Assembly: GCA_041611735.1 (NCBI GenBank)
Contig: JBFIML010000014.1
Location: 9,921 to 73,920 of the forward strand
From: Myxococcota bacterium
Lineage (GTDB): Bacteria; Myxococcota_A; UBA9160; PR03
Length of the DNA stretch: 64,000 nucleotides
Direction of reading: 5' to 3'
Shown here piece after piece: positions 4,221 to 54,563 of this stretch. Under the pieces are notes generated by a model, which ran no database searches, was not told where the DNA came from, and saw only the letters and a list, made by a program, of their open reading frames with translations. Made by a program: the position numbers and the translations under genes. Positions within the stretch are counted from its first letter, which is position 1; every line of letters begins with the position of its first letter.

Positions 4221-4225
4221 GACGG

Positions 4226-31774: not shown

Positions 31775-31846
31775 GTGGGTCCTCCCGTCGCGGGCCTGCG
31801 CCGGAGCGCCATCCTCCCGGCGCACCCCGTGGTAGCCTACCGGAGC

Positions 31847-32473
31847 ATGGCCCGTGAAGGCTCGTCGCCGTCGGCGCCGCTCCGGGAAGCTGCCGAAGCC
31901 GACCTCCTCGCACGTCTGCGGGCGGGCGACGAGAAGGCCTTCGAAGAGCTGGTGCGGCTTCTGGGCGGACGCCTGCTCGCGGTGGCCCGCCGCTTCCTCC
32001 CGGAGGAGGAGGACGCCCGGGACGCGGTCCAGGACGCCTTCCTCTCCGCCTTCCGGGGCCTGGCCCGCTTCGAGGGGCAGGCGCGGCTTTCCACCTGGCT
32101 GCACCGCATCGTCGTGAACGCGTGCCTGCTCAAGCTGCGTTCGCGCCGACGCCGGCCCGAGGAGCCCATCGACGGGCTGCTGCCGGAGTTCCTGGCCGAT
32201 GGCCACTATGCGCTCCCGGCGGTCGCGTGGCGCAACGACGTCATCGCAGCGCTCGAGCGCGACGAGCTGCGCGCCCTGGTGCGCGAGGCGCTGGAACGAC
32301 TTCCCGGGAGCCACCGCCTCGTGCTCCTGCTGCGCGACATCGAGGGGCTCGACACGACGGAAACCGCGCAGGCCCTCGGCATCAGCCCGGCGAACGTGAA
32401 GGTGCGCGTCCACCGGGCCCGCCAGGCGCTGCGCACCCTGCTCGACGCTCGTTTCCGCGAGGAGGAGCCGTGA
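31847..32473 (+). CDS. ECF RNA polymerase sigma factor
   Basis: DARDAVQDAF, TWLHRIVVN region 2; region 4 HTH ANVKVRVHRAR. Confidence 0.94.
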   Translation: MAREGSSPSAPLREAAEADLLARLRAGDEKAFEELVRLLGGRLLAVARRFLPEEEDARDAVQDAFLSAFRGLARFEGQARLSTWLHRIVVNACLLKLRSRRRRPEEPIDGLLPEFLADGHYALPAVAWRNDVIAALERDELRALVREALERLPGSHRLVLLLRDIEGLDTTETAQALGISPANVKVRVHRARQALRTLLDARFREEEP

Positions 32474-32718
32474 CCTGTCGCGAGTTCGTCGACTTCCTGA
32501 TGGCGTACCTGGACGGGGAGCTGCGCGGCGAGGGGCGGCGGCGCTTCGACCACCACCTGGAGCGCTGCCCGCCGTGTGTCGCGTATCTGGACACCTACCG
32601 CACGACCATCGAGCTCGTGCAGACGATCTGCGGGCACCCGGACGATCCGATCCCGGCGGACGTGCCGGAGGACCTGGTGGCGGCGGTCCTGGCGGCCCGG
32701 GAGGCGCCCCGGAGCTAG
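32470..32718 (+). CDS. zinc-finger (zf-HC2) anti-sigma factor, soluble
   Basis: C-x-..HLERCPPC (HxxxCxxC); GTGA overlap with the sigma gene. Confidence 0.9.
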   Translation: MTCREFVDFLMAYLDGELRGEGRRRFDHHLERCPPCVAYLDTYRTTIELVQTICGHPDDPIPADVPEDLVAAVLAAREAPRS

Positions 32719-32795
32719 GCAGTGGGAAGCACCCTTCCTCAGATGGGAAAGAGTTTTCCGCGGAGCCGGGGACCTGCTGGCTGGACCGCCTCCAA

Positions 32796-32820
32796 CCCCC
32801 CGGCCGGGGGGCCTTTTTAT
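32796..32820 (+). terminator. putative intrinsic terminator
   Basis: CCCCCC-GGCC-GGGGGG hairpin followed by CCTTTTTAT. Confidence 0.55.
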
Positions 32821-32831
32821 TCGAGCTGGCT

Positions 32832-32847
32832 GGGAACGGAACTTGCG
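32832..32847 (+). promoter_or_regulatory. putative sigma54 (-24/-12) promoter
   Basis: GGGAACG-GAAC-TTGCG has exact GG-N10-GC spacing, about 30 nt upstream of ATG 32878. Confidence 0.55.
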
Positions 32848-32877
32848 TACAGGGGCGACGTGGCAAGACAGGGCCGG

Positions 32878-34083
32878 ATGGGGCGGCTCGCCGCCAGTCT
32901 CCTGCTCGCGGCGGGGATCGTCGTGGCGGCGGGGGTCCCCGCCCGGGCGGTGATCATCGCCTCGGGCAACGGCACCGGGAACGCGGTGGCGCCTCCCGAC
33001 GACCCGGGCTGGGCCAACCTGGGGGTGATCGGCGGTCTGAGCGCCGTCTACCTGGGCAACGGCTGGGTCGCGACCGCCCGGCACGTGGGCGCGAACACCA
33101 CCCACTTCCTGGCGGTCCCGTACTCCGCGGTGGCGGGCTCCGAGGTCCAGTTCGAGACGAGCCCGGGCATCCTGGCCGACCTCGTCGTGTTCAAGATCGA
33201 GGGCGAGCCGCCGCTGCCGTCGCTTCCCATCGCCAGCGCCCCGCCGGCCGTCGGCGCCGACGTGATCATGGCCGGGAACGGGCGCAACCGGGGTGCCCCG
33301 CTCACGTGGCAGGGCAAGCAGGGCTGGTGGTGGGGCAGCGGAAAGGCCATGCGCTGGGGAACCAACCGCGTCCAGAATGCCTCCACCAACGTGACGCTCT
33401 CCGGTACCACGACCCGCGCCTTCTCCATGGATTTCACCCAGTCGCCGCCGGCCCAGGTCACGGAGCACGAGGCGCAGTTCGCCAACGGCGACTCCGGGGG
33501 CGCCGTCTTCATCCAGACCGGGGGCGTCTGGGAGCTGGCGGGCATCAACTTCGTGCGAGCCACCTACGGCGGCCAGCCGAACGACTCGGCCCTCTACGGC
33601 AACCTGAGCTACGCGGTCCAGCTCGCCCACTACCGGGACGCCATCCTGGCCGTGGTGACCCAGCCCGCCTGCAGCGACGGCCTGGACGACGATGGCGACG
33701 GCCTCGTGGACTGGCCCGCCGACCTGGGCTGCGACGACGCCCTCGACAGCTCGGAGTGGTCCGACTCCCTGCCCTGCGATGACGGCAGGGACAACGACGA
33801 GGACGGCGCCACGGACTTCCCGGACGACGTGGGCTGCGCCGGCCCCCTCTCCGCCCTCGAGAACCCCCAGTGCCAGGACGGCATCGACAACGACGGCGAT
33901 AGCCTGGTGGACTGGGACGGGGGCGGCGTGGGAAGCCCGGATCCCCAGTGCGTCGATCGACCCTGGCGCAACCTGGAGGCGGGCAGCTACTGCGGTCTCG
34001 GCTTCGAGCTGGCCCTGCTGCTGCCGCCCCTCGTGGCCCTCCGGCGGCGCCGCGGACGCGCTCCCGCCCAGCCCGCCGCTTGA
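32878..34083 (+). CDS. secreted trypsin-like serine protease with Cys/Asp repeats and CGLGFEL C-terminal tail
   Basis: Signal peptide (..VPARA); triad motifs TARHV, ADLVVF, GDSGG; three CxDGxDxDxD repeats. Confidence 0.85.
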   Translation: MGRLAASLLLAAGIVVAAGVPARAVIIASGNGTGNAVAPPDDPGWANLGVIGGLSAVYLGNGWVATARHVGANTTHFLAVPYSAVAGSEVQFETSPGILADLVVFKIEGEPPLPSLPIASAPPAVGADVIMAGNGRNRGAPLTWQGKQGWWWGSGKAMRWGTNRVQNASTNVTLSGTTTRAFSMDFTQSPPAQVTEHEAQFANGDSGGAVFIQTGGVWELAGINFVRATYGGQPNDSALYGNLSYAVQLAHYRDAILAVVTQPACSDGLDDDGDGLVDWPADLGCDDALDSSEWSDSLPCDDGRDNDEDGATDFPDDVGCAGPLSALENPQCQDGIDNDGDSLVDWDGGGVGSPDPQCVDRPWRNLEAGSYCGLGFELALLLPPLVALRRRRGRAPAQPAA

Positions 34084-34148
34084 CCCGCGCCCCCCTCCGG
34101 CGGTAGAAGCGAACTGCTCAGGACTCCAGGGAAGAGGAGGCCAAACCC

Positions 34149-34604
34149 ATGTCCGCCCGAGCCCGGTACCGTGGCGCCCTGGCCGGCGCCCTGGCCCTGG
34201 TGCTGGCCCCCGCGGCCGGCCTCGCCCAGCCCGTGGCCAAGTGGAACCCGGAGCGCATCGCCGGCTACGCGCAGCAGCTCGCCAAGGCGGGCATGGAGCT
34301 GGAGACCGCGGCCCGCAAGGCGCTGCTGCCCGGGCCGCCGCCCACGGTGTCCCAGCAGCGCGCGCGCTACGAATTCCTGGAGGCGTTGCGCTTGTTCGAG
34401 AACAGCGCCCACCACCTGGCCGAGGAGCTCAAGGCGGGCAAGGGGCGCGAGGCCACCGCGCCCACCTTCCGCCGCCTCCAGACCCTGCGCCGGGACGTGG
34501 AGGACAGCTCCCAGCGCATGGAGATCCCGGACTCCCTGCTCGCGGCCATGCTCAAGGCCGGCGAGCTCATGCTGCGCCTGGCTCCCTACTACGCGGACGT
34601 GTGA
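34149..34604 (+). CDS. hypothetical secreted helical protein
   Basis: Strong SD (GAGGAGG), signal peptide ..AAGLA. Confidence 0.75.
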   Translation: MSARARYRGALAGALALVLAPAAGLAQPVAKWNPERIAGYAQQLAKAGMELETAARKALLPGPPPTVSQQRARYEFLEALRLFENSAHHLAEELKAGKGREATAPTFRRLQTLRRDVEDSSQRMEIPDSLLAAMLKAGELMLRLAPYYADV

Positions 34605-34650
34605 ACCGCTGGAGATCCGGCCTGCGGCGCTCCGCGCTAGCGTCACCCCG

Positions 34651-35313
34651 ATGACCGCCTCGGGTGCCGTCCAGGTGGGCGTGATGCTGGCGCTCGCCGT
34701 CGCTCTGGCGACCAAGATCGCCGCGCAGAGGCGCCGGGGAGTCGTTCCCGTGGTGCTCGGCAAGGCTGGCGATGGCTTGGTGGCGCGCCTCGAACCCCTG
34801 GCGGCGGTCGCCCTGTTCCTCTGGTTCGCTGCGGTCGCCCTCCATGGCACGGGCTGGGCCCCCGGGCTGTTCGAGCCGCGGCTGTTCCGGTCGGCCGCGA
34901 TCGAGGTGGCCGGCACCTTCGTGACGCTGGCAGCCTTCGGGCTGCTCCTCACGGCCCTGCGCCAGATGGGTCGCTCCTGGCGCATCGGTATCGATCCCGG
35001 CAGCCACGAGGCGTTGGTCACCGAGGGCGTCTTCGCCCTCTCCCGGAACCCCATCTACTTCGCCATCGACCTGCTCGCGCTCGGCGCCTTCCTCGTCTCG
35101 GGCTCGCTGTTCTTCCTGGTCTCCGGGCTCCTCATCGCAGCGGACATCCACATCCAGATCCTGCGCGAGGAGCGCTTCCTGACCACGACCTTCGGCGACC
35201 GCTACGCGCGCTACCGCGCACGAGTGCGGCGCTACTTCGGCCGCCGCGGGAAGAGCCCGGAGCCGACACCGGGGCAGGGCGACCGCACTGGAGCCGCCCT
35301 GCCCCGACCGTGA
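34651..35313 (+). CDS. isoprenylcysteine carboxyl methyltransferase (ICMT/PEMT) family protein
   Basis: MGRSWRIGID, LVTEGVFALSRNPIY, EERFL..FG..Y..Y...V.R. Confidence 0.88.
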   Translation: MTASGAVQVGVMLALAVALATKIAAQRRRGVVPVVLGKAGDGLVARLEPLAAVALFLWFAAVALHGTGWAPGLFEPRLFRSAAIEVAGTFVTLAAFGLLLTALRQMGRSWRIGIDPGSHEALVTEGVFALSRNPIYFAIDLLALGAFLVSGSLFFLVSGLLIAADIHIQILREERFLTTTFGDRYARYRARVRRYFGRRGKSPEPTPGQGDRTGAALPRP

Positions 35314-35320
35314 AGGCCGG

Positions 35321-35794
35321 CTAGCGCACGAGCTGGAACGAGCGCGTGGGATGGGTGAGCGTGGGTGCAGGCTCGCCCTGGACCGGGTCCGTGACCAGGC
35401 GGTCGCCCTTCCCGCGCAGACCCGGGCGGGAGAAGGGATCACTGGCCGCGTCCGCATCCGGGGCCGCGGCGTCCTCGCAGTAGCCGAAGGCCCAGTCCCG
35501 GCAACTTCCCCCCTCCAGGGGGTCGTCGAGGATCACCTCGCACATCTCGCAGGCGAAGACCGCCACGTCCAGGCAGCTCTCGCACTCCCGCCCGCCGGCG
35601 TAGTTGTCCGTGCAGGCCTCGCCCAGCGTGTCCAGCAGCTTGAAGCAGGGGTGCGGCCCGCTCGAATCCCCGGCGTTGTCCGCGGCGTGCGCGCTCAGCG
35701 GCCCGCCCGTCAGCAGGACGATGCCGAGCGCCACCACCGCCGTCCTCCAGTTGCCCCGGGTCCCCGCCCGAAGCGCAGTCTCGATCTCGCTCAT
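35321..35794 (-). CDS. hypothetical secreted Cys-rich protein
   Basis: SD GAGGAGGAG, signal peptide ..SAHA, 8 Cys including CESC and CEMC. Confidence 0.7.
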   Translation of the reverse strand: MSEIETALRAGTRGNWRTAVVALGIVLLTGGPLSAHAADNAGDSSGPHPCFKLLDTLGEACTDNYAGGRECESCLDVAVFACEMCEVILDDPLEGGSCRDWAFGYCEDAAAPDADAASDPFSRPGLRGKGDRLVTDPVQGEPAPTLTHPTRSFQLVR

Positions 35795-35884
35795 CGACGT
35801 CTCCTCCTCGTGCCGGCCGCGCGGGCCGGCGTGGGGAGGGAGTGCGCGGGAGCGCCGGAATCGGATCAGCCCGCCAATCAAAGG

Positions 35885-35915
35885 GAACGCCCCCGGCGGA
35901 GGGCCGGGGGCGTTC
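35885..35915 (-). terminator. putative terminator hairpin after the CAP gene
   Basis: Perfect 12-bp stem GAACGCCCCCGG / CCGGGGGCGTTC followed by CCTTT on the minus strand. Confidence 0.65.
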
Positions 35916-35957
35916 GGGAACCGGAGACCGGGGCTGGAGCCGGCGCCGTGTGCCTGT

Positions 35958-36806
35958 CTAGGCCCGGCGGCGGCGGGCCCGGAGGGCGGCCAGGGGCGGC
36001 AGGAGCAACGCCAGCTCGAAGCCCAGGCCGCAGTGCGCGTTGCTCTCGGACCACTGCTCCGGGGCGGCGCAGCCGGGGTCGTCGGGGTGGTCGACGAGGC
36101 CGTCCCCGTCGTTGTCGATCCCGTCGCTGCAGTCCGGCGCCTCCGAGGGATCGTCCGCAGAGCTGCAGTTGAAGTCGCCCAGGAAGTCCGTGTAGCCGTC
36201 GCCGTCGTCGTCCAGGCCGTTGTCACAGGCGGGGGGCTCGGGTTCCTCGCAGCTTCCGGGCTCCACCGGCGCCTCGCTCGCGTTCCCGAAGTCCGCCGTC
36301 CACCAGTGGGGCTGCACCGTGACGCCGTAGGGCTGCAGCACGCAGAGCGCGGGCCCCACCGCGTGGCCGACCCCCACGTGACGCGCGTTGGCGTTCAGCA
36401 GGATGGCGCGGTGGGGGGTCGAGCCCATCCATCCCTGGACGATCTGGGCCGGGGTGGTCTGGCCTGCTCCCGCCGCCTCGGAGCCCCCGGCCGGGTAGCC
36501 GGCGTCCCGCATCCGGCTGCGAGCGGTGGAGCCGTCGGAGCCCGTGTGGGACAGGAAGCATCCGTCGCGCATGTCCTCGCTGTGGCGCACGGCGGCGGCC
36601 ATCAGGCGGCCGTCGATCTGGACCGGGGAGAGGCCGTTGCCCGCCCGCTCCAGGTTGATCCGTTCCACCACCTCCGCCTCCTCGGCCGTCGGCGTGGGGC
36701 AGGCGGACTGGGCGCGGGCCGGGAGCGGGGCCAGGGACGCCGCGACCAGGGCCAGCGCGAGCGCCAGGGCCAGCCCGAGGTTCGTGTCTCGCCCGCTTCC
36801 GTCCAT
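35958..36806 (-). CDS. secreted CAP (SCP) domain protein with Cys/Asp repeats and CGLGFEL C-terminal tail
   Basis: INLERAGNGL, AAVRHSEDM, SHTGSDG, WMGSTPHRAILL, VGVG. Confidence 0.88.
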   Translation of the reverse strand: MDGSGRDTNLGLALALALALVAASLAPLPARAQSACPTPTAEEAEVVERINLERAGNGLSPVQIDGRLMAAAVRHSEDMRDGCFLSHTGSDGSTARSRMRDAGYPAGGSEAAGAGQTTPAQIVQGWMGSTPHRAILLNANARHVGVGHAVGPALCVLQPYGVTVQPHWWTADFGNASEAPVEPGSCEEPEPPACDNGLDDDGDGYTDFLGDFNCSSADDPSEAPDCSDGIDNDGDGLVDHPDDPGCAAPEQWSESNAHCGLGFELALLLPPLAALRARRRRA

Positions 36807-37159
36807 GGGGTCGCCTCCCGTTCGCAGCCGTGCCGTCAGCCGCTGGAGCGGCGTGGGTCCTGATCGGCGGCACGGAGGAAGCAACGGGTGATAAAAACCA
36901 CATTCTTGGATCCCCGGGGGATTCTCAGCCAGCCCCGGACCGGGGCGGTGCTCGCAGCCTGGGCCGGCACCGCGGCCGTTCCAGACCGCGGAGGCCGCCG
37001 TTCCCGCAGTCGAACGATCCGCCTAGGTCGTTCGTGTCACGCCCGCCGCGCTCGGTGCCGGAGAGCCTATGCCCTGTGGACGATGCCCGCGCCGGGCTTT
37101 CCGCCCAGGGTTGCGCGCAGGGACGGCATCGGGCCGCCCCGAGAACCGGAGATCCAGAC

Positions 37160-40541: not shown

Positions 40542-42058
40542 CCCGGGACCCGCTCAAGGAGCTCAAGCTCCACAAGTATCGCCCGCTGCTCCAACCGCGG
40601 GCGTTGCGCGATTGCCCGGCGGCCCTGTGCGACGCCGACGGGCACCCGCTGTGGGCGCCGCGCGAGGAGGACGCTCGCGCGGTGGCGGCCGCCTGCGTGC
40701 GGATCTTCGAGCGCGGCTTCGGCTGGGACAGCGAGGACGAGACCCGCCGCGTGGAGCTGGACGGCACCGAGACGCTCTTCTATCGCCCGGTGCCGGCGGC
40801 CGGCGGCCCGCTCGCCTGGCTCGTGCTGCTGGTCCCGGCGGCCCAGCGCGCCACCGGCGCCACGGACCTCGACGCCGTCGACGACATCCTGCGCGGCGTC
40901 ACCGCCTGCCTGGCGGAAGAGCACCGGCTCAACGGAGAGCTCTACGGCCTCGCCGAGGAGCTCTCCCATCGCTACGAAGAGCTCAACATGCTCTACTCGC
41001 TGCGCGAGGGCGTCCCCGAAGAGGGCGATCGCTCGGTGCAGCGCTTCCTGGACGGCTTCGCCGAGCTGATCGACGTGGACGTGGCCGCCTTCGTCACCGT
41101 CGGGCGCACCCTGCCCATCCACGCCACCAACCTGAGCCGACCAATCCCCAATCTCGACCTGGTGCTGGTGGCCCTGCGCGGCGACCTGTTCCGCTTCGTG
41201 CAGGCGAGCCGCAAGATCCTGGTGCTGAACGCCGAAGACGACCCCCGCCGGGCCTTCGTCTTGACCAACATGCCCTTCAAGATGCTCGCGTGCCCCCTCG
41301 GCGACACCGGGACCGTCGATCACATGCTGGTTCTCCTGCGTCACACGCAACGGCCGGATTTCTCCAACAGCGATCGCAGCCTGGCCCGCGTGGTCACCGA
41401 CCAGGTCGGCCTGATGCTCCGCAACCAGTCCATGATGGGTCGCCTGAAGCGCTTCGGCGAGCAGACGGCCGGAGCCCTGATCGAGGCGCTGGAGGCGAAG
41501 GACCCCTACACGCGCGGGCACTCGGAGCGCGTGCAGATCGTATCCATCGAACTCGGTCGCGCGCTCGGCTTCCAGCCGCCCGAGCTCGAGGACCTGTTCT
41601 GGGGCTCCATCTTCCACGACGTCGGCAAGCTCGGCGTACCGGACGCGATCCTGTGCAAGCCAGGTCGTCTCACCGCGGACGAGTACGACTTCATCAAGAT
41701 CCACCCGGAGCGCAGCTACGAGATTCTGAAGCACGTGGAGTACCTGCGCCAGGACGCTCTGCACGGCGCACGCCACCACCACGAGCGCTTCGACGGACTG
41801 GGCTACCCACACGGGCTGAGCGGCCGAGCGATCCCCCTGCAAGCGCGCATCATCGCGGTGGCCGACACCTACGACGCGGTCACGAGCTCGCGCTCCTACC
41901 GCGCCGGACGCAGCCACGATGAGGCGATGGCCGTGATCCGCGAGGCGGCGGGCACCCAGCTCGATCCCCAGATCGTGGCCCGCCTGGAGGAGCTCTGCAC
42001 CGACGGCCCCCGGTGGCCGGCGCGCGGCAGCCTAGAGACCCTCGTCGGCGATGGCTGA
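40538..42058 (+). CDS. HD-GYP cyclic dinucleotide phosphodiesterase with GAF-like region
   Basis: YTRGHSERV, FHDVGK, HHERFDGLGYP, IAVADTYDA. Confidence 0.92.
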   Translation: MTRDPLKELKLHKYRPLLQPRALRDCPAALCDADGHPLWAPREEDARAVAAACVRIFERGFGWDSEDETRRVELDGTETLFYRPVPAAGGPLAWLVLLVPAAQRATGATDLDAVDDILRGVTACLAEEHRLNGELYGLAEELSHRYEELNMLYSLREGVPEEGDRSVQRFLDGFAELIDVDVAAFVTVGRTLPIHATNLSRPIPNLDLVLVALRGDLFRFVQASRKILVLNAEDDPRRAFVLTNMPFKMLACPLGDTGTVDHMLVLLRHTQRPDFSNSDRSLARVVTDQVGLMLRNQSMMGRLKRFGEQTAGALIEALEAKDPYTRGHSERVQIVSIELGRALGFQPPELEDLFWGSIFHDVGKLGVPDAILCKPGRLTADEYDFIKIHPERSYEILKHVEYLRQDALHGARHHHERFDGLGYPHGLSGRAIPLQARIIAVADTYDAVTSSRSYRAGRSHDEAMAVIREAAGTQLDPQIVARLEELCTDGPRWPARGSLETLVGDG

Positions 42059-44081
42059 GATCTCGCGCTCGCGCATCGGGGTCGCCACCTACCTGATCCC
42101 CGACGGCCCGCTGGTGGAGGAGACGCGCCTGTCGGCGCTCCAGAGCGCCGTGGAGGTCTGCCTGCGCGACCGCGAGTTCGAGCTGGTGCTCGACCTGGCG
42201 GGCGTGTCCCTGGTGAGTGGCGCCGCCCTCGAGCTGCTTCTCGACCTCCAGGACCGGCTGGCTCGCTCGGGAGGCTCGCTCCGGGTGGCCCACCTGAACC
42301 CGGTGCTGACCGACGTCTTCCGCATCACGGGACTGGCGGGACGCATCGCCATCCTCGACCGCAGCGATGCGGTGGAGGCGGCCGGCGCGCGCCTGGACGG
42401 CCGCCCCGCGCGCCGCATCGGCGAGATCCTGTTGGAGAAGGACTTGGTGTCGCCGGAGACCATCGAGAAGGCCCTGGCGCTGCAACGCCAGACCGGCGGG
42501 CGCATGGCCCAGCTCATGGTGGAGCAGGGCTGGCTCGCCGAGAAGGACCTGCTCCAGTCTCTGAGCGAGCAGCTCGGCGTGCCCTTCGTCTGGCTGCGCC
42601 CGGGCGTCTACGACCCGGCGGCGGTGACGACGATCGAGCGCGAGGTCGCGCTGCGGCTGCGGGTGGTACCGCTGTTCCAGGTCCGCGGGGTGATCCTTCT
42701 GGCCACCCCGGATCCCCAGTCGGTGCCTGCCATGGATGCGGTGGAGGACCTGACCGGCTGCAAGGTGAAGCCGGTCCTGGCCTGCTCGGAGGAGATCCGC
42801 ACCACGATCGAGGAGGCCCACAGCGGCAAGCAGGACCTGGCCGAGTACATCGGCGACCTCCAGGGCGACCTCGAGCTGGTGGAGAGCCGCTCCGAAGACG
42901 AGGGGTTGATCGATCAGCTCGCCTCCGGCAGCCCCGTCATCAACCTGATCAACGGGGTGATCCAGCGCGCGGTGCGAGACGGCGCCAGCGACATCCACAT
43001 CGAGCCGTCCCGCAGCCGCACCCGCATCCGCCTGCGCGTGGACGGCGTGCTGTATCCGATCATGGCGCCTCCGATCGAGGTGCACTCGGCCCTGGTCTCG
43101 CGCCTCAAGGTGATGGCCAGCCTCGACATCGCCGAGCGCCGCCAACCTCAGGATGGGCGCATCCAGGTAATGACCCAGGGTCGGGCGGTGGACCTCCGCT
43201 TCAGCTCCCTGCCGGGGATCTTCGGCGAGAAGATCGTGCTGCGCGTGCTGGACAAGAACCGCTCCATCCTGGAGGTCGGAAAGCTCGGGCTGGCAACCCA
43301 CAACGAGGAGCGCTTCAAGCGCCTCTTGAGCCGCAGCTACGGCCTGCTCCTGGTCACGGGACCGACCGGGAGCGGCAAGACGACGACTCTCTACGCGGCC
43401 GTGAATCATCTGACCAGCGACGAGAGGAACATCGTCACCATCGAAGACCCGGTCGAGTACCAGATCGATGCCATCAACCAGAACCAGGTCCGGGACCAGA
43501 TCGGCCTCAGCTTCGCCAAGATGTTGAAGCACGTGCTGCGTCAGGATCCCGACGTGATCATGGTGGGCGAGATCCGGGAGCGCGAGACCGCGGAGATCGC
43601 GGTGCAGGCCGCCCTCACCGGGCACCTGGTGCTCTCCACCCTGCACACCAACGACAGCATCGGTGCAATGACGCGGATGCTCGACATGGGTGTCGAGCCC
43701 TTTCTGCTCTCGTCGGCGCTGGTGGGTGTGGTGGCCCAACGGCTGCTGCGCCGGGTCTGCTCGGAGTGCGAGACCAGCTACGTGGCTCCGCCGGAGCTGC
43801 TGGAGCCCTACGGCATCCACCGCGGCGAGAAGATGCGTCTCAAGCGGGGACGCGGCTGCTCGGCCTGCTACGACTCCGGCTACCGGGGCCGCATGGCGAT
43901 CCACGAGCTGCTGGAGAGCGACGCCGAGCTGCAACGCCTGGTGGTGGCGAACCCCTCCCGGGACCAGCTCGAGCAGTACATGCGGAGCAGGCAGCTGAAG
44001 ACGCTCCTGCACGACGGCGTGGAGCGCGCCCTCCAGGGCCAGACGACCCTCGAGGAGGTCCTGCGCGTGGTGAACGCGTGA
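42051..44081 (+). CDS. PilB/GspE-family assembly ATPase with N-terminal STAS and MshEN domains
   Basis: GASDIHIEP, GPTGSGKT, LRQDPD, STLHTN, two CxxC zinc motifs; RIGEILLEK MshEN; STAS-like N-terminus. Confidence 0.93.
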   Translation: MAEISRSRIGVATYLIPDGPLVEETRLSALQSAVEVCLRDREFELVLDLAGVSLVSGAALELLLDLQDRLARSGGSLRVAHLNPVLTDVFRITGLAGRIAILDRSDAVEAAGARLDGRPARRIGEILLEKDLVSPETIEKALALQRQTGGRMAQLMVEQGWLAEKDLLQSLSEQLGVPFVWLRPGVYDPAAVTTIEREVALRLRVVPLFQVRGVILLATPDPQSVPAMDAVEDLTGCKVKPVLACSEEIRTTIEEAHSGKQDLAEYIGDLQGDLELVESRSEDEGLIDQLASGSPVINLINGVIQRAVRDGASDIHIEPSRSRTRIRLRVDGVLYPIMAPPIEVHSALVSRLKVMASLDIAERRQPQDGRIQVMTQGRAVDLRFSSLPGIFGEKIVLRVLDKNRSILEVGKLGLATHNEERFKRLLSRSYGLLLVTGPTGSGKTTTLYAAVNHLTSDERNIVTIEDPVEYQIDAINQNQVRDQIGLSFAKMLKHVLRQDPDVIMVGEIRERETAEIAVQAALTGHLVLSTLHTNDSIGAMTRMLDMGVEPFLLSSALVGVVAQRLLRRVCSECETSYVAPPELLEPYGIHRGEKMRLKRGRGCSACYDSGYRGRMAIHELLESDAELQRLVVANPSRDQLEQYMRSRQLKTLLHDGVERALQGQTTLEEVLRVVNA

Positions 44082-44088
44082 GGGCGCC

Positions 44089-45204
44089 ATGCCCCTCGAG
44101 ATCCCTTCGGCCGCCGCGCCGGCGCCGCGCTCCGGCTCGGCCCGGCGCCCGGCCGCTTCGCGCCGTGCCCGGTTCGGCGCGAAGGAGCGCATGTTCTTCA
44201 CCGAGCGCCTCGCCCTCCTGCTCGACACCGGCGTCCCCCTGCACGCGAGCCTGGAGACCCTGAGCCGCCAGGCGCAGGATGCGGAGACGCGCCGCATCTT
44301 CGGCAGCGTGGCCGACGACGTGGCCTCCGGCCTCTCCTTCGCGCGCGCCCTGGGCCGGCATCCGGGAGCCTTCCCGTCCACCTACGTAAATCTCGTGGAT
44401 GCCGCGGAGCGGGGCGGCTTCCTGCCCCGGGTCCTCGAGCGGCTGCGCGCCATGGACGAGCGCCGCGAGGAGCTGCGCTCGGTCCTGTGGGCCGCCTTCT
44501 CGTACCCGGTCTTCCTGGTGTTCTTCTCGACCGCCGTGGTGGTCTTCGTGCTGGTGGTCGTGTTCCCGAAGTTCGCGGATCTCTTCCAGGAGATCCGGGA
44601 CGCCCTGCCGCCCACGACGCGTCTGTTCATGGCCCTGAGCGACCTGCTGCGTCACCAGTGGCCCTTCGTGCTCGGCGGGCTCGCTGCCGCCGGGGCCGGC
44701 CTGCTGGCCTGGCTGAGACGGCCGCAGGGGGCGGAGTTCGCGGAGCGCGTGCTGCTCGGAACCCCCGGCCTGCGCACCGTGGTGGTCGAGCTCCAGCTCG
44801 TGCAGTTCCTGAGCGTGATGAGCCTTTCGCTCGGGAACGGCGTCCCGATGCTCGACGCCCTGCGCGCCTGCCGGGAGATCGTGCCCGGCCGCCGCTTCCG
44901 GCGCTTCGTGGAGCGGCTCGAAACCAGCGTCACGGAGGGGCGCGGCGTCAGCCCGGCGTTCCAGAGCGAGAGGTTCCTGCCGGCCCTGGTGCCGCAGATG
45001 ATCGGGACCGCCGAGGAGAGCGGAAGCCTGGCCGCCGTGATGGGGCGGGTCGCCGACTTCTACGAGCGCGAGCTTCGCAAGCGGCTCCAGACCCTGGCCA
45101 AGATCGTGGAGCCGGCGCTGCTCGTGGTGATGGGGGCGGTGGTGGGGCTGATCGTGGCCTCCCTGATCCTGCCCATCTTCAAGCTGTCCCGGACCGTTCG
45201 CTGA
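44089..45204 (+). CDS. PilC/GspF inner-membrane platform protein
   Basis: LLDTGVPL, AAERGG, AFSYP, AEESGSL, IVEP..LILPIF. Confidence 0.93.
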   Translation: MPLEIPSAAAPAPRSGSARRPAASRRARFGAKERMFFTERLALLLDTGVPLHASLETLSRQAQDAETRRIFGSVADDVASGLSFARALGRHPGAFPSTYVNLVDAAERGGFLPRVLERLRAMDERREELRSVLWAAFSYPVFLVFFSTAVVVFVLVVVFPKFADLFQEIRDALPPTTRLFMALSDLLRHQWPFVLGGLAAAGAGLLAWLRRPQGAEFAERVLLGTPGLRTVVVELQLVQFLSVMSLSLGNGVPMLDALRACREIVPGRRFRRFVERLETSVTEGRGVSPAFQSERFLPALVPQMIGTAEESGSLAAVMGRVADFYERELRKRLQTLAKIVEPALLVVMGAVVGLIVASLILPIFKLSRTVR

Positions 45205-45230
45205 CCCCCTGGGGACGCCCACTCACCGGC

Positions 45231-45258
45231 TCAAGTCGCGCCCGACCAGGGCCGATAG
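45231..45258 (+). promoter_or_regulatory. putative sigma28-family promoter of the major pilin
   Basis: TCAA-N16-GCCGATAG. Confidence 0.6.
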
Positions 45259-45309
45259 GCAGGGGGCTCCGGCGCCTGCAGGCCGCCGGCAACAGGATGG
45301 GAAGGAGCC

Positions 45310-45813
45310 ATGAAGCAGATCGAGATCCTCCGGCGCCGCGAGCGCGGCTTCACCCTGGTCGAGCTGCTGATCGTCGTGATCATCCTCGCAATCCTGGCGG
45401 CGATCGTGGTGCCCCAGTTCACGGCCTCCACCAGCGACGCCCGCGAGGCGGCGGTCGACAGCACGCTGCAGAACATGCGCTCCGCCATCGACCTGTACCG
45501 GCAGCAGCACGACGCCTACGCGGCGAACGGGGCCGACGTGACCGATCAGGCCGCGGCCACCACGCTCTTCTTCGACCACATGCTCAAGTACACCAACGAG
45601 ACCGGGGGCGTCAGCGCCACCAAGAACGCGGCTTTTCCCTACGGCCCCTACCTGCGCAAGAAATCGCTTCCCAGCGTGAAGGGCAGCGAAACCCTCGTGA
45701 TCAGCAATAGCACCACCGTGCCCCTCGACGTCTCCACGGGGACCGGCGGCTGGATCTACTCCTGGGAAACCGGCCAGTTCATGGCCAACCATCCCGACTA
45801 CCAGGATCGCTGA
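45310..45813 (+). CDS. major type IV pilin / pseudopilin
   Basis: Class III signal RG|FTLVELLIVVIILAILAAIVVP; SD AAGGAG; own promoter candidate. Confidence 0.92.
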   Translation: MKQIEILRRRERGFTLVELLIVVIILAILAAIVVPQFTASTSDAREAAVDSTLQNMRSAIDLYRQQHDAYAANGADVTDQAAATTLFFDHMLKYTNETGGVSATKNAAFPYGPYLRKKSLPSVKGSETLVISNSTTVPLDVSTGTGGWIYSWETGQFMANHPDYQDR

Positions 45814-45933
45814 TCGGGGTCGAGACGTGTTGTGCGCGCGACCGCCGTCCGCAGGAGGCTGGCATGACACGGAGGGCGCTCGCGTTCCCTGACGGCGCAG
45901 CCCGCGCGACGCGGGCCGGACCCGGGTGGGATC

Positions 45934-47163
45934 ATGCCGGCTGACTCCTCCCCGGATGCATCGTCCGAGACCCAGCCGCAGGCCGCCGGCCTGTTGCGGC
46001 CCCTGTTCCACGCCTGGTCCACCACCCGCTTCGCAGCCGACGACCTGAGCTCCTACGCCGAGCGCCTCATGATCGAGGAGACGCGCCGCGGCCTGATCGC
46101 CATGGCGGCGGTCTTCCTGATCCTGCTGGCGGCCTTCGCCCTGGTCTCCGCCCGGCTCGAACTGGATCGCTCCTACGTGTACACGAGCGCGGCCCTGGGC
46201 GCCCTGGCCATCCACGTGTGTTTCGCAGCCCGGGCCATCCACGAGATCCGCACCCTCCACGTGCTGGGCATGACGCTGCTGGTCATCAGCGGCTCCTCCT
46301 TCGTCCTGCTGGCCCACCGCGCGGGCGGCTTCGGGGCGGCCCTCTTCAGCGCGGTGGTTTTGCTCTACATGGTGGTCCCCATGGTGCCGTGGGGGCTGCG
46401 GGAAGCCTCCATCGTCACCATGCTGATCTACGGACTCTTCTCCTCCTCCATCTGGAGCGTGGCGGAGCGCTTCGATGCCCAGACCGCGTGGGCGCTCCAG
46501 GTCTTCATGCTGACCGCCGGGGCCGTGAGCCTCACGCTGGTCGCGCGCGGGGCGAACGTGCGTAAGGCCGACATCCGCGCCCGCTTCGATCTGGAGAGTG
46601 CGCACCGGGAGCTCGAGCGCCTGAGCCGGGAGGACCCGCTCACCGGCGCCTGGAACCGCCGCTTCCTCGAGTCGGAGTTCCCGGCCTTGCTGGAGCGGCT
46701 GCGCAAGGCGCAGCACAACGGCTACTTCGCCCTGCTGGACCTGGACCACTTCAAGCAGCTGAACGACACCTGCGGGCACGCCCACGGCGACCGCGTGCTG
46801 CAGCTCGTCGGACAGGTCTTCCGGGAGCACGTGGCGGAGACGGGGCACCTGGTCCGGACCGGCGGCGACGAGTTCACCCTGCTCACCGAGGGAGAGGATC
46901 CGGAGCCCACCATCGCCGAGGCCGTCGAGGCGGTGCGGGAGGCTGCCGGCGGGGGCCCCGGCGCCCCGCCCTTCTCCATCAGCGTGGGTCTCGTCGTGCT
47001 GCCGCCCGGGGCCACGGTCAGCCTCGAGCGGGCCTATCGCCGTGCCGACCAGGCCTTGTATCGGGCCAAGGCGCGGCGCGACCCTCAGGCGGGGAGCAGC
47101 CGCGTGGTCCGCGTCGGCTTGTCCGCCCGCTCGGCGTCTCTCCCGGCAGGCGAAATTCGATGA
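45934..47163 (+). CDS. membrane diguanylate cyclase (GGDEF)
   Basis: About 6 TM; DPLTGAWNRR, DLDHFKQLND..GH..GD, GGDEF. Confidence 0.92.
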   Translation: MPADSSPDASSETQPQAAGLLRPLFHAWSTTRFAADDLSSYAERLMIEETRRGLIAMAAVFLILLAAFALVSARLELDRSYVYTSAALGALAIHVCFAARAIHEIRTLHVLGMTLLVISGSSFVLLAHRAGGFGAALFSAVVLLYMVVPMVPWGLREASIVTMLIYGLFSSSIWSVAERFDAQTAWALQVFMLTAGAVSLTLVARGANVRKADIRARFDLESAHRELERLSREDPLTGAWNRRFLESEFPALLERLRKAQHNGYFALLDLDHFKQLNDTCGHAHGDRVLQLVGQVFREHVAETGHLVRTGGDEFTLLTEGEDPEPTIAEAVEAVREAAGGGPGAPPFSISVGLVVLPPGATVSLERAYRRADQALYRAKARRDPQAGSSRVVRVGLSARSASLPAGEIR

Positions 47164-48272
47164 CGACGGCCACGCTCTGGAGCGCGCTGCGTCGACGCCT
47201 GGACCCCGGCGGCCGCGCTCCCATCGGCCTCGTCCTGGACGGGAATCGCATCGAGCTCCTCCAGCTCGAAGGCTCGCCGCAGCAGCCGCGCGTGCGGGCC
47301 TGCCTGACCCTGGACCGAGCCGACGGCGGAGAGCTCCTCCCCAGCCGCGATGCCCTGCGAAGCCTGCTCGGCCCGCGCCTGCGCCAGACGGGCTTCCGGG
47401 GGCGCCGCACGGTCACAGCCATGCCGGCGAGCCAGGTCAAGCTCATGGTGGTGAACTACGGCCTCGAGTCGAACCGCGACGAGGCGGAGCTCATCCTGCG
47501 TCTGGTCGCCGAGCGGGTGCCGCAGCCCCTCGCGCAGTGCGTGGTGGACTACCTGCCGATCCGCACCGCCAGCGAGAGCGAGAAGTCGGCGCTGGTGGCC
47601 GTGGCCCAGCGCGAGAACGTGATCGGCTATCTGGAGCTCTTGCGCGCGGCCGGGCTTCAGGTGGAGGCGCTCGAGATCGAGCCGGTCGCCATGCGCCGCC
47701 TCGTGATGCGGCTCTCCCAGGACGAAGCGAAGGAGAACATCCTGGTCCTCAACGGGGGCGCGACCCGTAGTGACCTCACCGTGTTCTGGGGGCGGCGCCT
47801 GATCCTCTACCGGGAGCTGGAGTTCGGCGAGTCGCGAGCCGTCGAGCGTCTGAGCCGGACGCTCGAGATGAGCCCCGAGTCGGCGGTTTCGGTGCTGCGG
47901 GAGTACGGCTTCCGGTCGCCGGTATCGCCAGCGGACCTCGGGGGCGGTCCTCCGCCCCACGAGATCAGCCAGGCGGTGCGCGAGATCCTGAAGGCCGAGT
48001 TCGACCGGGTGGCCGAATCGGTGCGCAACGCCCTGGCCTACACCGCCTCCCGCACGCGCGGCGGGGCCGTGGACGCCGTCTACCTGGTGGGGAGCATCGT
48101 GCGCTGGCCCGAGGTGGAGCACGTGCTGCAGGAGCGCCTCGCGCTCCCGGTCGAGATCCTGGATCCGCGCGCGGCCTTCGATCCGAGTCGCGCCGAGCTG
48201 GGCTCTGCGGCGCCGGCGCCCTCGGCAATCGTGGCGGGCCTGGCCCTGCGAGGGGTCGGCCATGAGTCATGA
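47160..48272 (+). CDS. pilM: PilM-like actin-fold pilus assembly protein
   Basis: PIGL, VVDYL, AAGLQVEALEIEPVA, terminal GLALRG. Confidence 0.82.
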   Translation: MTTATLWSALRRRLDPGGRAPIGLVLDGNRIELLQLEGSPQQPRVRACLTLDRADGGELLPSRDALRSLLGPRLRQTGFRGRRTVTAMPASQVKLMVVNYGLESNRDEAELILRLVAERVPQPLAQCVVDYLPIRTASESEKSALVAVAQRENVIGYLELLRAAGLQVEALEIEPVAMRRLVMRLSQDEAKENILVLNGGATRSDLTVFWGRRLILYRELEFGESRAVERLSRTLEMSPESAVSVLREYGFRSPVSPADLGGGPPPHEISQAVREILKAEFDRVAESVRNALAYTASRTRGGAVDAVYLVGSIVRWPEVEHVLQERLALPVEILDPRAAFDPSRAELGSAAPAPSAIVAGLALRGVGHES

Positions 48273-48909
48273 CATCGACCTGATCCCGGCGGACTACCGG
48301 GCGTGCCTGCGCTCCCGGGAGTGGCTGCGGCGCATCGGCTTCGCCTACCTCGCGCTGGGGCTCGGCCTCGGACTGGCGCGGGCCGGCGTGGCCTGGGAGA
48401 CCCACGGACGCAGCCGCGAGAATGCCCGCATGGAGGCGGTGGCCGCCGCAGCGCAGGAGCGGCGCGCGCACCTGGAGGGTCTGCGCCAGCGGCGCAGCGA
48501 GCTCGAGAAGCAGCTCGCCCTGCTCGAGGGGCTGCGCGGCGGGGTCGAAGCGCGCCGCATGCTCCAGGCCGTCGATCGCGCCCTCGACGAGAACGTCTGG
48601 TTCGTCGACTGGAAGTTCCGCCGCGCCGGAGCGCTCGTCGACCGGGAACCGAACGCCGTCGCCACCGGCTACTTCCTGGTCGTGCCGGCCGGCAAGAAGG
48701 AAGAAGGACCCAAGGCCTGGCGCATGGACACCCACATGGAGATTCGCGCGCGGGCCGTGGACCACTCGAGCCTGGCGAACTTCGTGAGCCGGCTGGTGGC
48801 GCAGCCGGAGGTGGAGAGCGTCCGCGTGCTGAACACGCGGGTGCGCCCGTATCTCGAGGCGCAGGCCGTCGAGTTCGAGCTGGCGGTGGTGGTGAGGGGA
48901 AGGGCGTGA
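48262..48909 (+). CDS. pilN: PilN-like protein
   Basis: IDLIP N-terminal motif (cf. INLLP), TM, coiled coil, NVWF. Confidence 0.8.
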   Translation: MSHDIDLIPADYRACLRSREWLRRIGFAYLALGLGLGLARAGVAWETHGRSRENARMEAVAAAAQERRAHLEGLRQRRSELEKQLALLEGLRGGVEARRMLQAVDRALDENVWFVDWKFRRAGALVDREPNAVATGYFLVVPAGKKEEGPKAWRMDTHMEIRARAVDHSSLANFVSRLVAQPEVESVRVLNTRVRPYLEAQAVEFELAVVVRGRA

Positions 48910-49478
48910 CGGCCCCCTGGCTGGAGCAGCTGCAGGTGCGACCCGAGGCCCTCTTGGCCTCGCTGGCGGCAGGCGCCGTGATGCTGGGGCTCACGGGCTA
49001 CCTCTACGTGCTCCAGCCCGCCCTGCGCGAGCTCCGCGAGCTCCGGGAGCAGGGCAGCGGAGCGCTGCTTGCCGAAGGCGTGGTGGCCGAGGTGGGCGCA
49101 GCGTCCATCGAGCGTCTCGAGCGGGAGGTCGAGGCGGTCCGCGAGCGGCTCTATGGAGCCTCCGGCCAGGTGGCCCCGGACCGCATGGAGGCCTGGGTGA
49201 TCAACGGCCTCGATCGCCTCTCGCTCCGCCACGGGGTACAGCTGGTGAGCGTCGCGCCGGAAGGGCCGAGGCCGGTGCTCGTCTTCGACGAGCTTCCGGT
49301 GCAGGTGCACGTGCAGGCCGGGTACTTCGATCTCTTCGCCTGGCTCACCGACGTGGAGCAGGAGCTGCGTCCGCTGGTGGTGAAGGAATTCGCCTTGAGC
49401 GGTACGGGCGAGCCGGGTCGCGTGTCGTTGCAGTTGCGTCTGGTCTCGTTCCGACCGCGGAGCGAAGGGGCGTCATGA
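48906..49478 (+). CDS. pilO: PilO/GspM-like protein
   Basis: One TM; ELPVQVHVQAGYFDLFAWL resembles PilO; gene position. Confidence 0.75.
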   Translation: MTAPWLEQLQVRPEALLASLAAGAVMLGLTGYLYVLQPALRELRELREQGSGALLAEGVVAEVGAASIERLEREVEAVRERLYGASGQVAPDRMEAWVINGLDRLSLRHGVQLVSVAPEGPRPVLVFDELPVQVHVQAGYFDLFAWLTDVEQELRPLVVKEFALSGTGEPGRVSLQLRLVSFRPRSEGAS

Positions 49479-49873
49479 CGGGCGGACCCACGAAGCTCGG
49501 CGCCGTGCTGCTGGCGCTGGGGCTCTTCTCCCTGCCCGGGCGGGCGGAGGATGCCGCGCCGGCAACGGGTGCCCCGGGGCTTCCCGCCGAGCCGATTCCG
49601 ATGCTGCGCTTCAACCCCTTCGTCCCGCCCGCCGTGCTGGGGCGCGGCGGGGGCGAAGTGGCCGGCGCGCCGGGCTTCGGCGCTTTCCCGCGGCTTACCG
49701 GGACGCTGGTGGCGGGCCCCCAGTCGCTGGCCAACCTGGGCGGATGGATCCTCGGCCTCGGGGAGGAGGCTCACGGCTACCGGCTGGTCGAGGTGCGCGA
49801 GGGCGAAGCGGTCTTCGAGCGGGACGGTCGTCCGCTGGTGCTGCGTGTGGACGACGAGGAGGCGGCGCCGTGA
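49475..49873 (+). CDS. PilP/GspC-like protein
   Basis: Signal peptide, RFNPF, LTGTL..A, GEE..GYRLVEV; between pilO and secretin. Confidence 0.7.
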   Translation: MTGGPTKLGAVLLALGLFSLPGRAEDAAPATGAPGLPAEPIPMLRFNPFVPPAVLGRGGGEVAGAPGFGAFPRLTGTLVAGPQSLANLGGWILGLGEEAHGYRLVEVREGEAVFERDGRPLVLRVDDEEAAP

Positions 49874-53631: not shown

Positions 53632-54563
53632 AGGGCGCCTCCCACCCGCACCCGACGCACGAGGCGAAGGAGGCGACCGTCCGCGTCGGGAAGCTCCAGG
53701 ACGAGCTCCACCAGCACAGCCCGATCGCTGACGTTGGAAGGCAGGCGGCGGGCCTCGAAGCGGGTTAGCCCCGCGGCGATGGGCTGCTCGGTGAACTGGA
53801 GGCCGTTCGCCGCGTGGGGCACGGGGATGCGTTCCAGGAGGAGGTCGCCCTGCCTGCGGAAGAGCACCACCTCGAAGCCGTCCTCGTCCTTGGTGCCGCG
53901 CTGGTCCTCGTCCTCGTCGTCGTCCTCCTTGCTGCTCTCGTCCACCAGCCCGTCGCCGTCGTCGTCGATCCCGGCGATGCCCGCCGCACCGTCGGCGTTC
54001 AGATCCGCGCCCAGGTCCTCGTCGATGGACGCGTCGCCGTCGTCGTCCGCGCCGTCCAGGGCCTCCTCGTCCTTGGTGCCGCGCTGGTCCTCGTCCTCGT
54101 CGTCGTCCTCCTTGTTGCTCTCGTCCACCAGCCCGTCGCCGTCGTCGTCGATCCCGGCAATGCCCGCCGCACCGTCGGCGTTCAGATCCGCGCCCGGATC
54201 CTCGTCGATGCGGCCGTCCCGGTCGTTGTCCGCGTCCGCGAAGCCGTCGCCATCCCGATCCAGGCGCGGATCGAGCACCAGGGCCAGCACGTCGCGCACG
54301 GACTCGCTCCAGGGCGTGGCGGGGGCCTCAGCCAGGGGCAGCAGCAGGCGGGGCGAGCCGGCCACCGCCGTCACCATGCGGTCCATGGCGAAGCGGACCT
54401 CGCGCAGGCGGTCGTTGCGCGCCCGCGCCATCCGCTCGGCCGAGAGGGCATTGCTCACCGCGCCGGCCAGGCCTGCCAGCAGGAGCGCCCCGACGATCAG
54501 GACCACCAGGAGCTCCACCAGCGTGAAGCCCGCCCGCTGCCGGTCCCCGGGCTCAGTCGGCAC
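53628..54563 (-). CDS. PilW/GspJ-like minor pilin with Asp-rich repeats
   Basis: AG|FTLVELLVVL class III signal. Confidence 0.85.
   Translation of the reverse strand: MPTEPGDRQRAGFTLVELLVVLIVGALLLAGLAGAVSNALSAERMARARNDRLREVRFAMDRMVTAVAGSPRLLLPLAEAPATPWSESVRDVLALVLDPRLDRDGDGFADADNDRDGRIDEDPGADLNADGAAGIAGIDDDGDGLVDESNKEDDDEDEDQRGTKDEEALDGADDDGDASIDEDLGADLNADGAAGIAGIDDDGDGLVDESSKEDDDEDEDQRGTKDEDGFEVVLFRRQGDLLLERIPVPHAANGLQFTEQPIAAGLTRFEARRLPSNVSDRAVLVELVLELPDADGRLLRLVRRVRVGGAL
53881..54210. repeat. 183-bp-period tandem duplication in the minor pilin
   Basis: 53881-54027 nearly identical to 54064-54210 (61-aa period). Confidence 0.93.

Follow-up and report, generated by a model that had tools for sequence, protein, structure and literature searches.

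The C-terminal sorting signals of a bacterium decide which of its proteins are fixed to the surface, and each newly recognised signal has so far led to a new sorting enzyme. Described here is a short C-terminal tail opening with the residues CGLGFEL, found on two secreted proteins encoded in a 64,000-nucleotide stretch of a Myxococcota bacterium (GenBank assembly GCA_041611735.1, contig JBFIML010000014.1, positions 9,921 to 73,920 of the forward strand; called the window below, with coordinates counted from its first letter). The tail is very probably a real sorting signal of a new class. The explanation that best accounts for the observations overall, and that we consider likely, is a tripartite C-terminal sorting signal of mostly uncultured genomes of high guanine-cytosine (GC) content labelled Myxococcota, whose processing would be of the cysteine (Cys) type.

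The first of the two proteins is a secreted trypsin-like serine protease (32878..34083, forward strand; 401 residues from the ATG at 32878) and the second is a secreted CAP/SCP-domain protein on the reverse strand (35958..36806; 282 residues from the ATG at 36806). The open reading frame (ORF) of the protease, 32722-34083 (+), is 453 residues from stop to stop and ends in EAGSYCGLGFELALLLPPLVALRRRRGRAPAQPAA, a C-terminus also printed as SYCGLGFELALLLPPLVALRRRRGRAPAQPAA. Its 401-residue product is identical to database protein P0001, matches the Pfam families Trypsin_2 (9.9e-8) and Trypsin (3.8e-5) and carries the motifs ARHV, DLVV and GDSGG. The ORF of the CAP protein, 35958-36884 (-) with its methionine at 36806, ends in SNAHCGLGFELALLLPPLAALRARRRRA (also printed as AHCGLGFELALLLPPLAALRARRRRA) and matches Pfam CAP at 1.3e-17. 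Judged by eye, both proteins start with a putative Sec-type signal peptide: MGRLAASLLLAAGIVVAAGVPARA in the protease (32878..32949, +) and MDGSGRDTNLGLALALALALVAASLAPLPARA in the CAP protein (36711..36806, -). At the other end both carry CGLGFELALLLPPL, followed by one or two hydrophobic residues and then an arginine (Arg) cluster. The protease tail (33991..34080, +), which can be aligned with 58 tails of other genomes, consists of CGLGFEL with the hydrophobic ALLLPPLVAL (33991-34041), RRRR (34042-34053) and a final GRAPAQPAA. The tail of the CAP protein (35961..36032, -; ORF translation and pattern match) reads CGLGFELALLLPPLAAL and then RARRRRA.

A preliminary description of this DNA had reported N-terminal signal peptides and 14 identical residues written in different codons on two unrelated proteins. 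The signal peptides and the identical residues are borne out, with the Cys codons starting at 33991 (+) and 36032 (-). Between the two 42-nucleotide copies there are six synonymous differences (GGT/GGC, CTC/CTG, GCC/GCG, CTG/TTG, CTG/CTC and CTC/CTG), so the identity is kept at the protein level and does not stem from a recent DNA copy; selection therefore acts on the tail peptide. A back-translated CGLGFEL[AV]L pattern has two matches in the window and no match in 100 dinucleotide-preserving shuffles, and neither a third copy nor any other tripartite tail was found in the window. That the proteins are unrelated holds for their enzyme domains (Trypsin_2/Trypsin versus CAP) but not for their C-terminal third, where both have acidic Cys-bounded repeats upstream of the tail. 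Three of these (CxDGxDNDxDGxxD...C; regular expression) lie at 33670..33951 (+) in the protease, and two at 36069..36227 (-) in the CAP protein (36165-36227 by hand, 36069-36131 by regular expression). Against the NCBIfam model NF033662 (acid_disulf_rpt; cut-off 41 bits), the protease repeats score 40.2 bits over three stretches and those of the CAP protein 46.1 bits over two.

The tail recurs widely in other genomes. Scanning one genome per species (GTDB representatives) with a degenerate DNA pattern, in which a TGY codon was required for the Cys, gave at least 116 distinct matches that fall into two classes after translation. The 45 or 46 matches of the first class have no sensible continuation and come from phyla of all sorts; a rough calculation puts the chance matches for a pattern of such information content at about 35. 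The second class comprises at least 70 tails, in at least 39 assemblies, in which at least eight hydrophobic residues are followed by at least three Arg or lysine (Lys) residues. One locus that passed this filter (L043) is a false positive, and two borderline loci (L058 and L108) were left out of the count. A stop codon follows 20 to 50 codons past the Cys in 64 of the 70 tails, the other six having none within the 60 codons read, and a single assembly can hold at least six tails. Among the matches listed, 33 of the 39 assemblies carry the label of Myxococcota, Myxococcales or Deltaproteobacteria: the records read Myxococcota in 12 cases, Myxococcales/Myxococcaceae in six and 'delta proteobacterium'/Deltaproteobacteria in 15, with five 'Spirochaetales' and one Thermoanaerobaculia besides. 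Four loci of the 'Spirochaetales' assemblies were checked and have 66-74% GC; one of them (L061) has a PEP-type tail. The genomes with tails include two assembled to chromosome level from metagenomes (OZ245002.1 and CP070734.1).

A profile hidden Markov model (HMM) extends this distribution. Built from an alignment (A1) of 60 tails, namely the two of the window and 58 from other genomes, it retrieved by hmmsearch 1587 of 1.84 billion cluster representatives at E<=1e-3 and 54 at E<=1e-10, the 1587 being counted at 50% clustering; the best 150 of the 1587 were inspected. The tail stands at the C terminus: among the 145 of these best 150 that match the regular expression, the median distance from the Cys to the end is 26 residues, and it is at most 45 residues in 133. 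P0003 (627 residues), P0059 and 10 other top matches have 20-50 or more residues after the tail. These extensions are probably gene-calling or frameshift artefacts, not internal motifs, and P0003 looks like a read-through of P0002. The signal suggested in the preliminary description as lineage-specific is thus recurrent, with at least 70 tails in at least 39 assemblies and 1587 profile representatives, and by the same HMM check the motif is neither restricted to the two window proteins nor internal. Word-based tail searches returned 4 and 31 matches under limits of word and length, which makes them no census, and a feature search of the ESM Atlas with the CAP-protein tail had a best score of 0.80, under the useful range. 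In the databases, tail proteins go by names such as 'hypothetical protein', 'subtilisin family serine protease' and 'uncharacterized membrane protein'. A new signal of this kind lets thousands of 'hypothetical' proteins be annotated as surface proteins.

The cargo of the tail is diverse, in keeping with the proposal that it sits on unrelated secreted enzymes, and extends to adhesin-like repeats. Pfam domains were found in 24 of 37 full-length cargo ORFs and none in 13. They include S8 subtilases, trypsin, CAP, M23, CotH, glucose/sorbosone dehydrogenase (GSDH), PQQ dehydrogenase and BNR domains, as well as FG-GAP, beta-helix, alpha/beta hydrolase and galactose-oxidase-like domains. Orthologues of the window protease bear the tail in two loci (L041 and L059), and so do homologues of the CAP protein in L039 (65.7% identity across the CAP domain) and L026. 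Two modules can precede the tail. Among 147 matches with at least 20 upstream residues, an acidic repeat followed by C...W..E occurs in 42 and a ...F[EK][GA]CDxI... module in 53; the other 52 have neither. In L035, 21-6877 (-), and in L025, four genes stand in tandem, two of them for S8 subtilases, and all end in the tail, with a PEP-CTERM gene interleaved.

The anatomy of the tail is remarkably constrained in the best 150 matches. Cys and glycine (Gly) open it at 100% each, followed by leucine (72%; isoleucine 25%), Gly (100%), phenylalanine (96%), glutamate (Glu; 100%) and leucine (95%). The hydrophobic part continues with alanine (84%; valine 14%), leucine (54%; phenylalanine 43%) and two further leucines (70% and 90%). 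Proline (Pro) then occupies position 12 (97%) and position 13 (80%; Gly 13%), after which come leucine (95%), methionine (74%), tryptophan (87%), leucine (85%) and an Arg-rich stretch. The hydrophobic run past the Glu, with the consensus ALLLPPLMWL, is exactly 11 residues long in 119 of 148 tails, and 3-7 Arg or Lys residues lead to the protein terminus. The Cys is also present in all 31 matches of the word-based search, whose words could omit it. Apart from the tail Cys, the number of Cys residues per cargo ORF is even in 24 of 35 and zero in two (the window proteins have six and eight); with start codons uncertain this count is crude, and to that crude extent the even numbers would support a free, modifiable Cys in the tail.

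None of the curated C-terminal models covers this signal. The same 60 tails were scanned against NCBIfam release 20.0 at E<=10. No tail matches PEP-CTERM (TIGR02595; cut-off 16 bits) even at that threshold, and none contains Pro-Glu-Pro. The MYXO-CTERM cut-off (TIGR03901.2; 20 bits) is reached by 0 of 60, with four subthreshold matches at 12.3-19.1 bits. Six tails match Synerg-CTERM (TIGR04564) at 9.9-17.4 bits, all under its cut-off of 22.5; this is the sole CTERM model that touches a window tail (11.9 bits). Two tails match PVV-CTERM, both under the cut-off, and four match GlyGly-CTERM (TIGR03501), one of which (L075, 18.8 bits) lies above that model's low cut-off of 15.5. The scan does work on tails of these genomes, since TIGR02595 recognises 8 of 12 PEP-type tails that were taken as a positive control from the flanks of CGLGFEL-tail genes. 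Pfam has no match for the tail itself. Searches of 8.4 million full-text papers with the strings CGLGFEL, GLGFEL, CGLGF and CGIGFEL returned no relevant paper, and searches on CTERM, sorting signals and exosortases in Myxococcota surfaced only papers on myxosortases. The CGLGFEL tail is uncovered by the curated CTERM models scanned and the literature searched, and the earlier impression that the motif belongs to no named family stands: in a scan whose positive control worked, not one of the 60 tails scored at or above the cut-off for MYXO-, PEP- or Synerg-CTERM. With release 20.0 lacking a model for the CGLGFEL tail, a curated HMM would improve the annotation of these metagenome-assembled genomes and, through phylogenetic profiling, provide a straightforward way to look for the cognate enzyme.

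Among known systems, the closest resemblance is to signals that contain a Cys. Four such tripartite signals (MYXO-, JDVT-, Synerg- and CGP-CTERM) have each been linked to a CPBP/Rce1-like protease in the account by Haft (10.1101/2023.06.07.544157). There MYXO-CTERM is described as free of charged and Pro residues in its membrane segment and as often having a second Cys (GCGC), JDVT-CTERM as having one Cys and a near-invariant DP ahead of a Leu-rich segment, and Synerg-CTERM as shorter, with an invariant Pro inside its Leu-rich stretch. The CGLGFEL tail shares with MYXO-CTERM the extreme C-terminal tripartite build, the invariant Cys, many unrelated cargos per genome, the occurrence in Myxococcota and the lack of a sorting enzyme encoded next to its targets (the enzymes of MYXO-CTERM being MrtX/MrtC/MrtP of the CPBP family). 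It differs in its single Cys, in Glu at 100% and Pro at 97%/80% (positions 12/13), in a shorter hydrophobic part of fixed length and in the model scores. Synerg-CTERM (MrtS) is likewise short, contains a Cys and has an invariant Pro within its Leu-rich membrane stretch, but is a family of Synergistota without the GxGFE signature, and the CGLGFEL tails all fall below its threshold. JDVT-CTERM (MrtJ) also has a single invariant Cys and an acidic residue between it and the Leu-rich membrane segment; unlike the CGLGFEL tail with its many targets per genome, it serves one target whose protease lies in the same operon, whereas no CPBP gene adjoins the CGLGFEL-tail genes, and its model gives no match. 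With its single Cys, its invariant acidic residue and a short Leu-rich stretch that contains an invariant Pro, the CGLGFEL tail looks, from its residues, like a fifth member of the Cys-type group and not like MYXO-CTERM proper.

A local form of MYXO-CTERM, a diverged known family processed by an ordinary MrtX/MrtC/MrtP-type myxosortase, has to be weighed at this point. We find it somewhat doubtful, while noting that it overlaps with the broader CPBP/myxosortase-like class discussed below. The invariant Cys and the labels of 33 of the 39 assemblies among the matches listed (Myxococcota, Myxococcales or Deltaproteobacteria) speak for it, as do the subthreshold matches to TIGR03901.2 (4 of 58 tails at 12-19 bits) and the fact that 690 kb of flanking sequence showed no canonical MYXO-CTERM tail of the GC type. 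Signal and enzyme have moreover been described as co-evolving and diverging by lineage, so that a single HMM fails (10.1101/2023.06.07.544157). On the other side, no tail reaches the cut-off of 20 bits, and the MYXO-CTERM model gives 14-21 bits to the neighbouring PEP-type tails as well; the subthreshold matches are thus unspecific and reflect the hydrophobic-plus-Arg part. The Glu at 100%, the Pro at 97% and the single Cys also depart from the published description of MYXO-CTERM.

A mechanism for the Cys-type signal can be proposed from these likenesses. MrtX cleaves MYXO-CTERM in a Cys-dependent manner (Guo, Haft and Wall, PMC11980579), and Haft has proposed a lipid on the Cys, cleavage distal to it and type II secretion to the surface (10.1101/2023.06.07.544157). 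By analogy we infer cleavage or lipidation at the Cys of the CGLGFEL tail and anchoring of the enzymes to the surface. After Sec export, the tail would keep the protein in the inner membrane. A segment of 17 residues, which runs from the Cys up to the first Arg and has a kink at Pro-Pro, would cross that membrane and leave the Arg cluster on the cytoplasmic side. The Cys, at the outer face of the inner membrane, would then be modified, probably with a lipid, and a single housekeeping intramembrane protease encoded elsewhere would remove the hydrophobic and Arg-rich part. The likeliest candidate would be a CPBP/Rce1-like relative of the myxosortases; that the enzyme is CPBP/myxosortase-like we propose tentatively, with a confidence somewhat short of even. 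As a last step the protein may reach the cell surface and be displayed there, a type II secretion system being one possible route.

The search for such an enzyme drew on 46 sources, the window plus 45 flanking loci, with 689,720 bases and 2832 stop-to-stop ORFs in total. A Pfam scan of the 66 window ORFs detects no gene of the CPBP, exosortase, rhomboid or sortase kind, so it remains true that no sorting protease is visible in the window. Among the selected ORFs sent to NCBIfam, none matches the core myxosortase model (NF040914), and scans of the flanks with CPBP regular expressions, a crude method, gave nothing usable. Searching all loci by tblastn with eight window proteins returned only orthologues of the protease and the CAP protein, three sigma factor genes of the extracytoplasmic function (ECF) type and one weak PEMT match, and all-against-all clustering of the 2832 ORFs found no recurrent partner beyond common families (for example acyl-CoA dehydrogenase, ECF sigma and AMP-binding enzymes). 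In Haft's account a housekeeping sorting enzyme is never encoded beside its targets (10.1101/2023.06.07.544157), and by that analogy the missing recurrent neighbour would fit a housekeeping enzyme encoded away from them. The Pfam search of multi-transmembrane ORFs also found an Lnt gene (L068). Overall, the counts of membrane enzymes in the flanks are not clearly above chance, for which a rough estimate gives 0.1-0.5 expected per family.

Several points weigh against Cys-type processing by a CPBP-like enzyme. The invariance of the Cys is built into the genome scan, which required TGY, and is favoured by the profile seed too, while the best 150 alone of the 1587 profile matches were examined. 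The invariant Glu that starts the membrane segment is a hallmark of exosortase (PEP) signals and atypical of MYXO-CTERM. No CPBP domain (PF02517) occurs in 69 multi-transmembrane ORFs (68 flanking, one in the window), a negative that, for the roughly 600 genes sampled in all, is uninformative either way. Genes for other membrane proteases do occur near the tail genes, namely of the exosortase family in 2 of 45 flanks (L033 and L044, within 10 kb of tail genes), of the rhomboid domain in 2 of 45 (L024 and L059) and of the M50 family in two (L042 and L046). The tail in fact mixes traits held typical of different systems: a Cys as in myxosortase signals, a Glu as in exosortase signals, and Gly and Pro as in rhomboid substrates. 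Identifying its enzyme would therefore test how far the features of a motif predict the class of its enzyme. If an exosortase or a rhombosortase-like enzyme proves to be cognate, this would be the first Cys-type signal outside the CPBP class.

An exosortase substrate would be a Cys-bearing signal of the PEP-CTERM/PGF/PEF kind, cleaved and re-attached by a dedicated exosortase paralogue. The likeness to PEP-CTERM lies in the acidic residue starting the membrane segment (Glu in 100% of the 150, as in PEP), the Arg cluster and the many cargo proteins, and the 'GFE' of the tail presumably resembles PGF and PEF. CGLGFEL tails also share genomes with PEP-CTERM proteins and exosortase genes, which sometimes adjoin the tail genes. 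The gene in L033, 16809-17708 (-), encodes an XrtA-like exosortase (122 bits versus a cut-off of 208) and that in L044, 6-494 (-), an XrtH-like one (74.5 bits versus 86); each lies under every named subfamily cut-off, and they may represent unclassified subfamilies. Against this explanation, which we hold to be unlikely, TIGR02595, which 8 of 12 neighbouring PEP tails pass, matches 0 of 60 tails at E<=10, the CGLGFEL tail has an invariant Cys and lacks Pro-Glu-Pro, and about 11 hydrophobic residues follow its Glu versus about 17 in the neighbouring PEP tails. An invariant Cys is not known to us from any exosortase signal. As partners of the tail the two exosortases are disfavoured, neither being operonic with a tail gene or recurrent in other flanks. 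PEP tails and the VPVTSTWG tail of a protein in L008 could account for both enzymes, and the PEP tails give them probable substrates of their own.

Thirteen ordinary PEP-CTERM proteins are encoded close to tail genes (L003, L005, L019, L022, L025, L035, L039, L041 and L061), several of them directly adjoining (for instance L039 8161-8847 and L041 10175-11695), so at least two C-terminal sorting systems exist side by side in these genomes. The L008 protein, 5833-7515 (+), ends in VPVTSTWGSALLAALLLAALSLLGFWRGEARSRS, where VPVTSTWG resembles the IPTLxxWG-type signal of XrtH; this tail scores 9.3 bits on IPTL-CTERM (TIGR04174; cut-off 20.5) and 14.6 on 'midcut-by-XrtH'.

Cleavage by a rhomboid-family enzyme, a divergent rhombosortase acting on a GlyGly-CTERM-like signal with G-x-G small residues and a Pro-Pro helix break, appears improbable. 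GlyGly-CTERM is not known to have an invariant Cys or Glu; the likeness is in the small-residue motif before a short membrane segment, the Arg cluster and the protease cargo. In the CGLGFEL tail the Gly residues at positions 2 and 4 are invariant and the Pro is near-invariant, and the one tail above the GlyGly-CTERM cut-off (L075) comes from the same genome as L024, whose rhomboid has rhombosortase (TIGR03902) as its best model at E 1.4e-7. The Vibrio GlyGly-CTERM cargo VesB is described as a serine protease, and in L059 a rhomboid-domain gene ends 175 bp upstream of the protease orthologue on the same strand. However, the L024 protein reaches 31.6 bits versus a cut-off of 84, at E<=0.01 none of the NCBIfam models matches the L059 protein, and no protein passes the rhombosortase model. 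Rhomboids are common, which makes 2 of 45 flanks near chance, and 54 of the 58 tails from other genomes have no GlyGly-CTERM match.

A simpler possibility is that the tail is never cleaved and, as a plain C-terminal anchor, keeps periplasmic enzymes attached to the inner membrane. A hydrophobic segment with a positive cluster suffices for stop-transfer, and no processing enzyme was found in the window and flanks. Such an anchor needs no invariant C-G-x-G-F-E-L, no fixed length of 11 residues and no Pro, yet these are kept in 150 of 150 matches despite synonymous change, and 17 residues with Pro-Pro would be short and kinked for a stable helix. We regard an uncleaved anchor as very unlikely.

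A separate sorting pathway with its own enzyme set is also rather unlikely. It could employ an unclassified exosortase- or rhombosortase-like enzyme near the tail genes, or resemble, in bacteria, the CAAX route of eukaryotes, in which case a lipid on the Cys would be followed by Rce1-like cleavage just after it and methyl-esterification of the Cys carboxyl by an ICMT-family enzyme. A gene for a membrane methyltransferase of the PEMT/ICMT family (34651..35313, +; Pfam PEMT 1.9e-9) lies between the two tail genes of the window, on the strand of the protease and in its operon, and is a hint at such a carboxyl methylation step, its adjacency not being conserved. The best NCBIfam model for its product is protein-S-isoprenylcysteine O-methyltransferase, at 52.9 bits versus a cut-off of 160. 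A second PEMT/ICMT gene, L004 4650-5243 (-), lies 5 kb from a tail gene amid unrelated genes. With the family present in 2 of 46 sources and never beside the protease orthologues, its link to the tail is a hint at most.

The remaining surroundings of the two tail genes in the window can be described briefly. Downstream of the protease gene lies a small secreted ORF of 151 residues (34149..34604, +), and downstream of the CAP gene, which is convergent with the genes on the protease side, lies a small Cys-rich secreted ORF of about 160 residues (~35321..35800, -); both have a signal-peptide-like start and no family match. A type II/IV secretion-like cluster occupies 42051-51225 (+) and 53628-55556 (-), 6-15 kb from the tail genes, and contains a T2SSE ATPase with STAS and MshEN, T2SSF, pseudopilins, a GGDEF protein, PilM and a secretin. 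Surface delivery of MYXO-CTERM proteins is described as needing a type II system. Further away, 10236-11159 (+) encodes a membrane protein for which phosphatidylcholine synthase models give the best match (174.7 bits, under the equivalog cut-offs). NuoD (78% identity) and an unknown downstream ORF (59%) are syntenic between the window, 2253-4364 (-), and L033, 17775-20025 (-); the gene that follows this pair is the exosortase in L033 but not in the window. Directly upstream of the protease gene are an ECF sigma factor and a zf-HC2 anti-sigma factor (31775..32718, +; Pfam Sigma70_r2/r4_2 and zf-HC2). ECF sigma genes also lie near tail genes in three other loci (L033, L048 and L068), and the arrangement in L033 is analogous: genes for an ECF sigma factor, an anti-sigma factor and a subtilisin-like protease are found there at a distance of a few kb from the tail gene.

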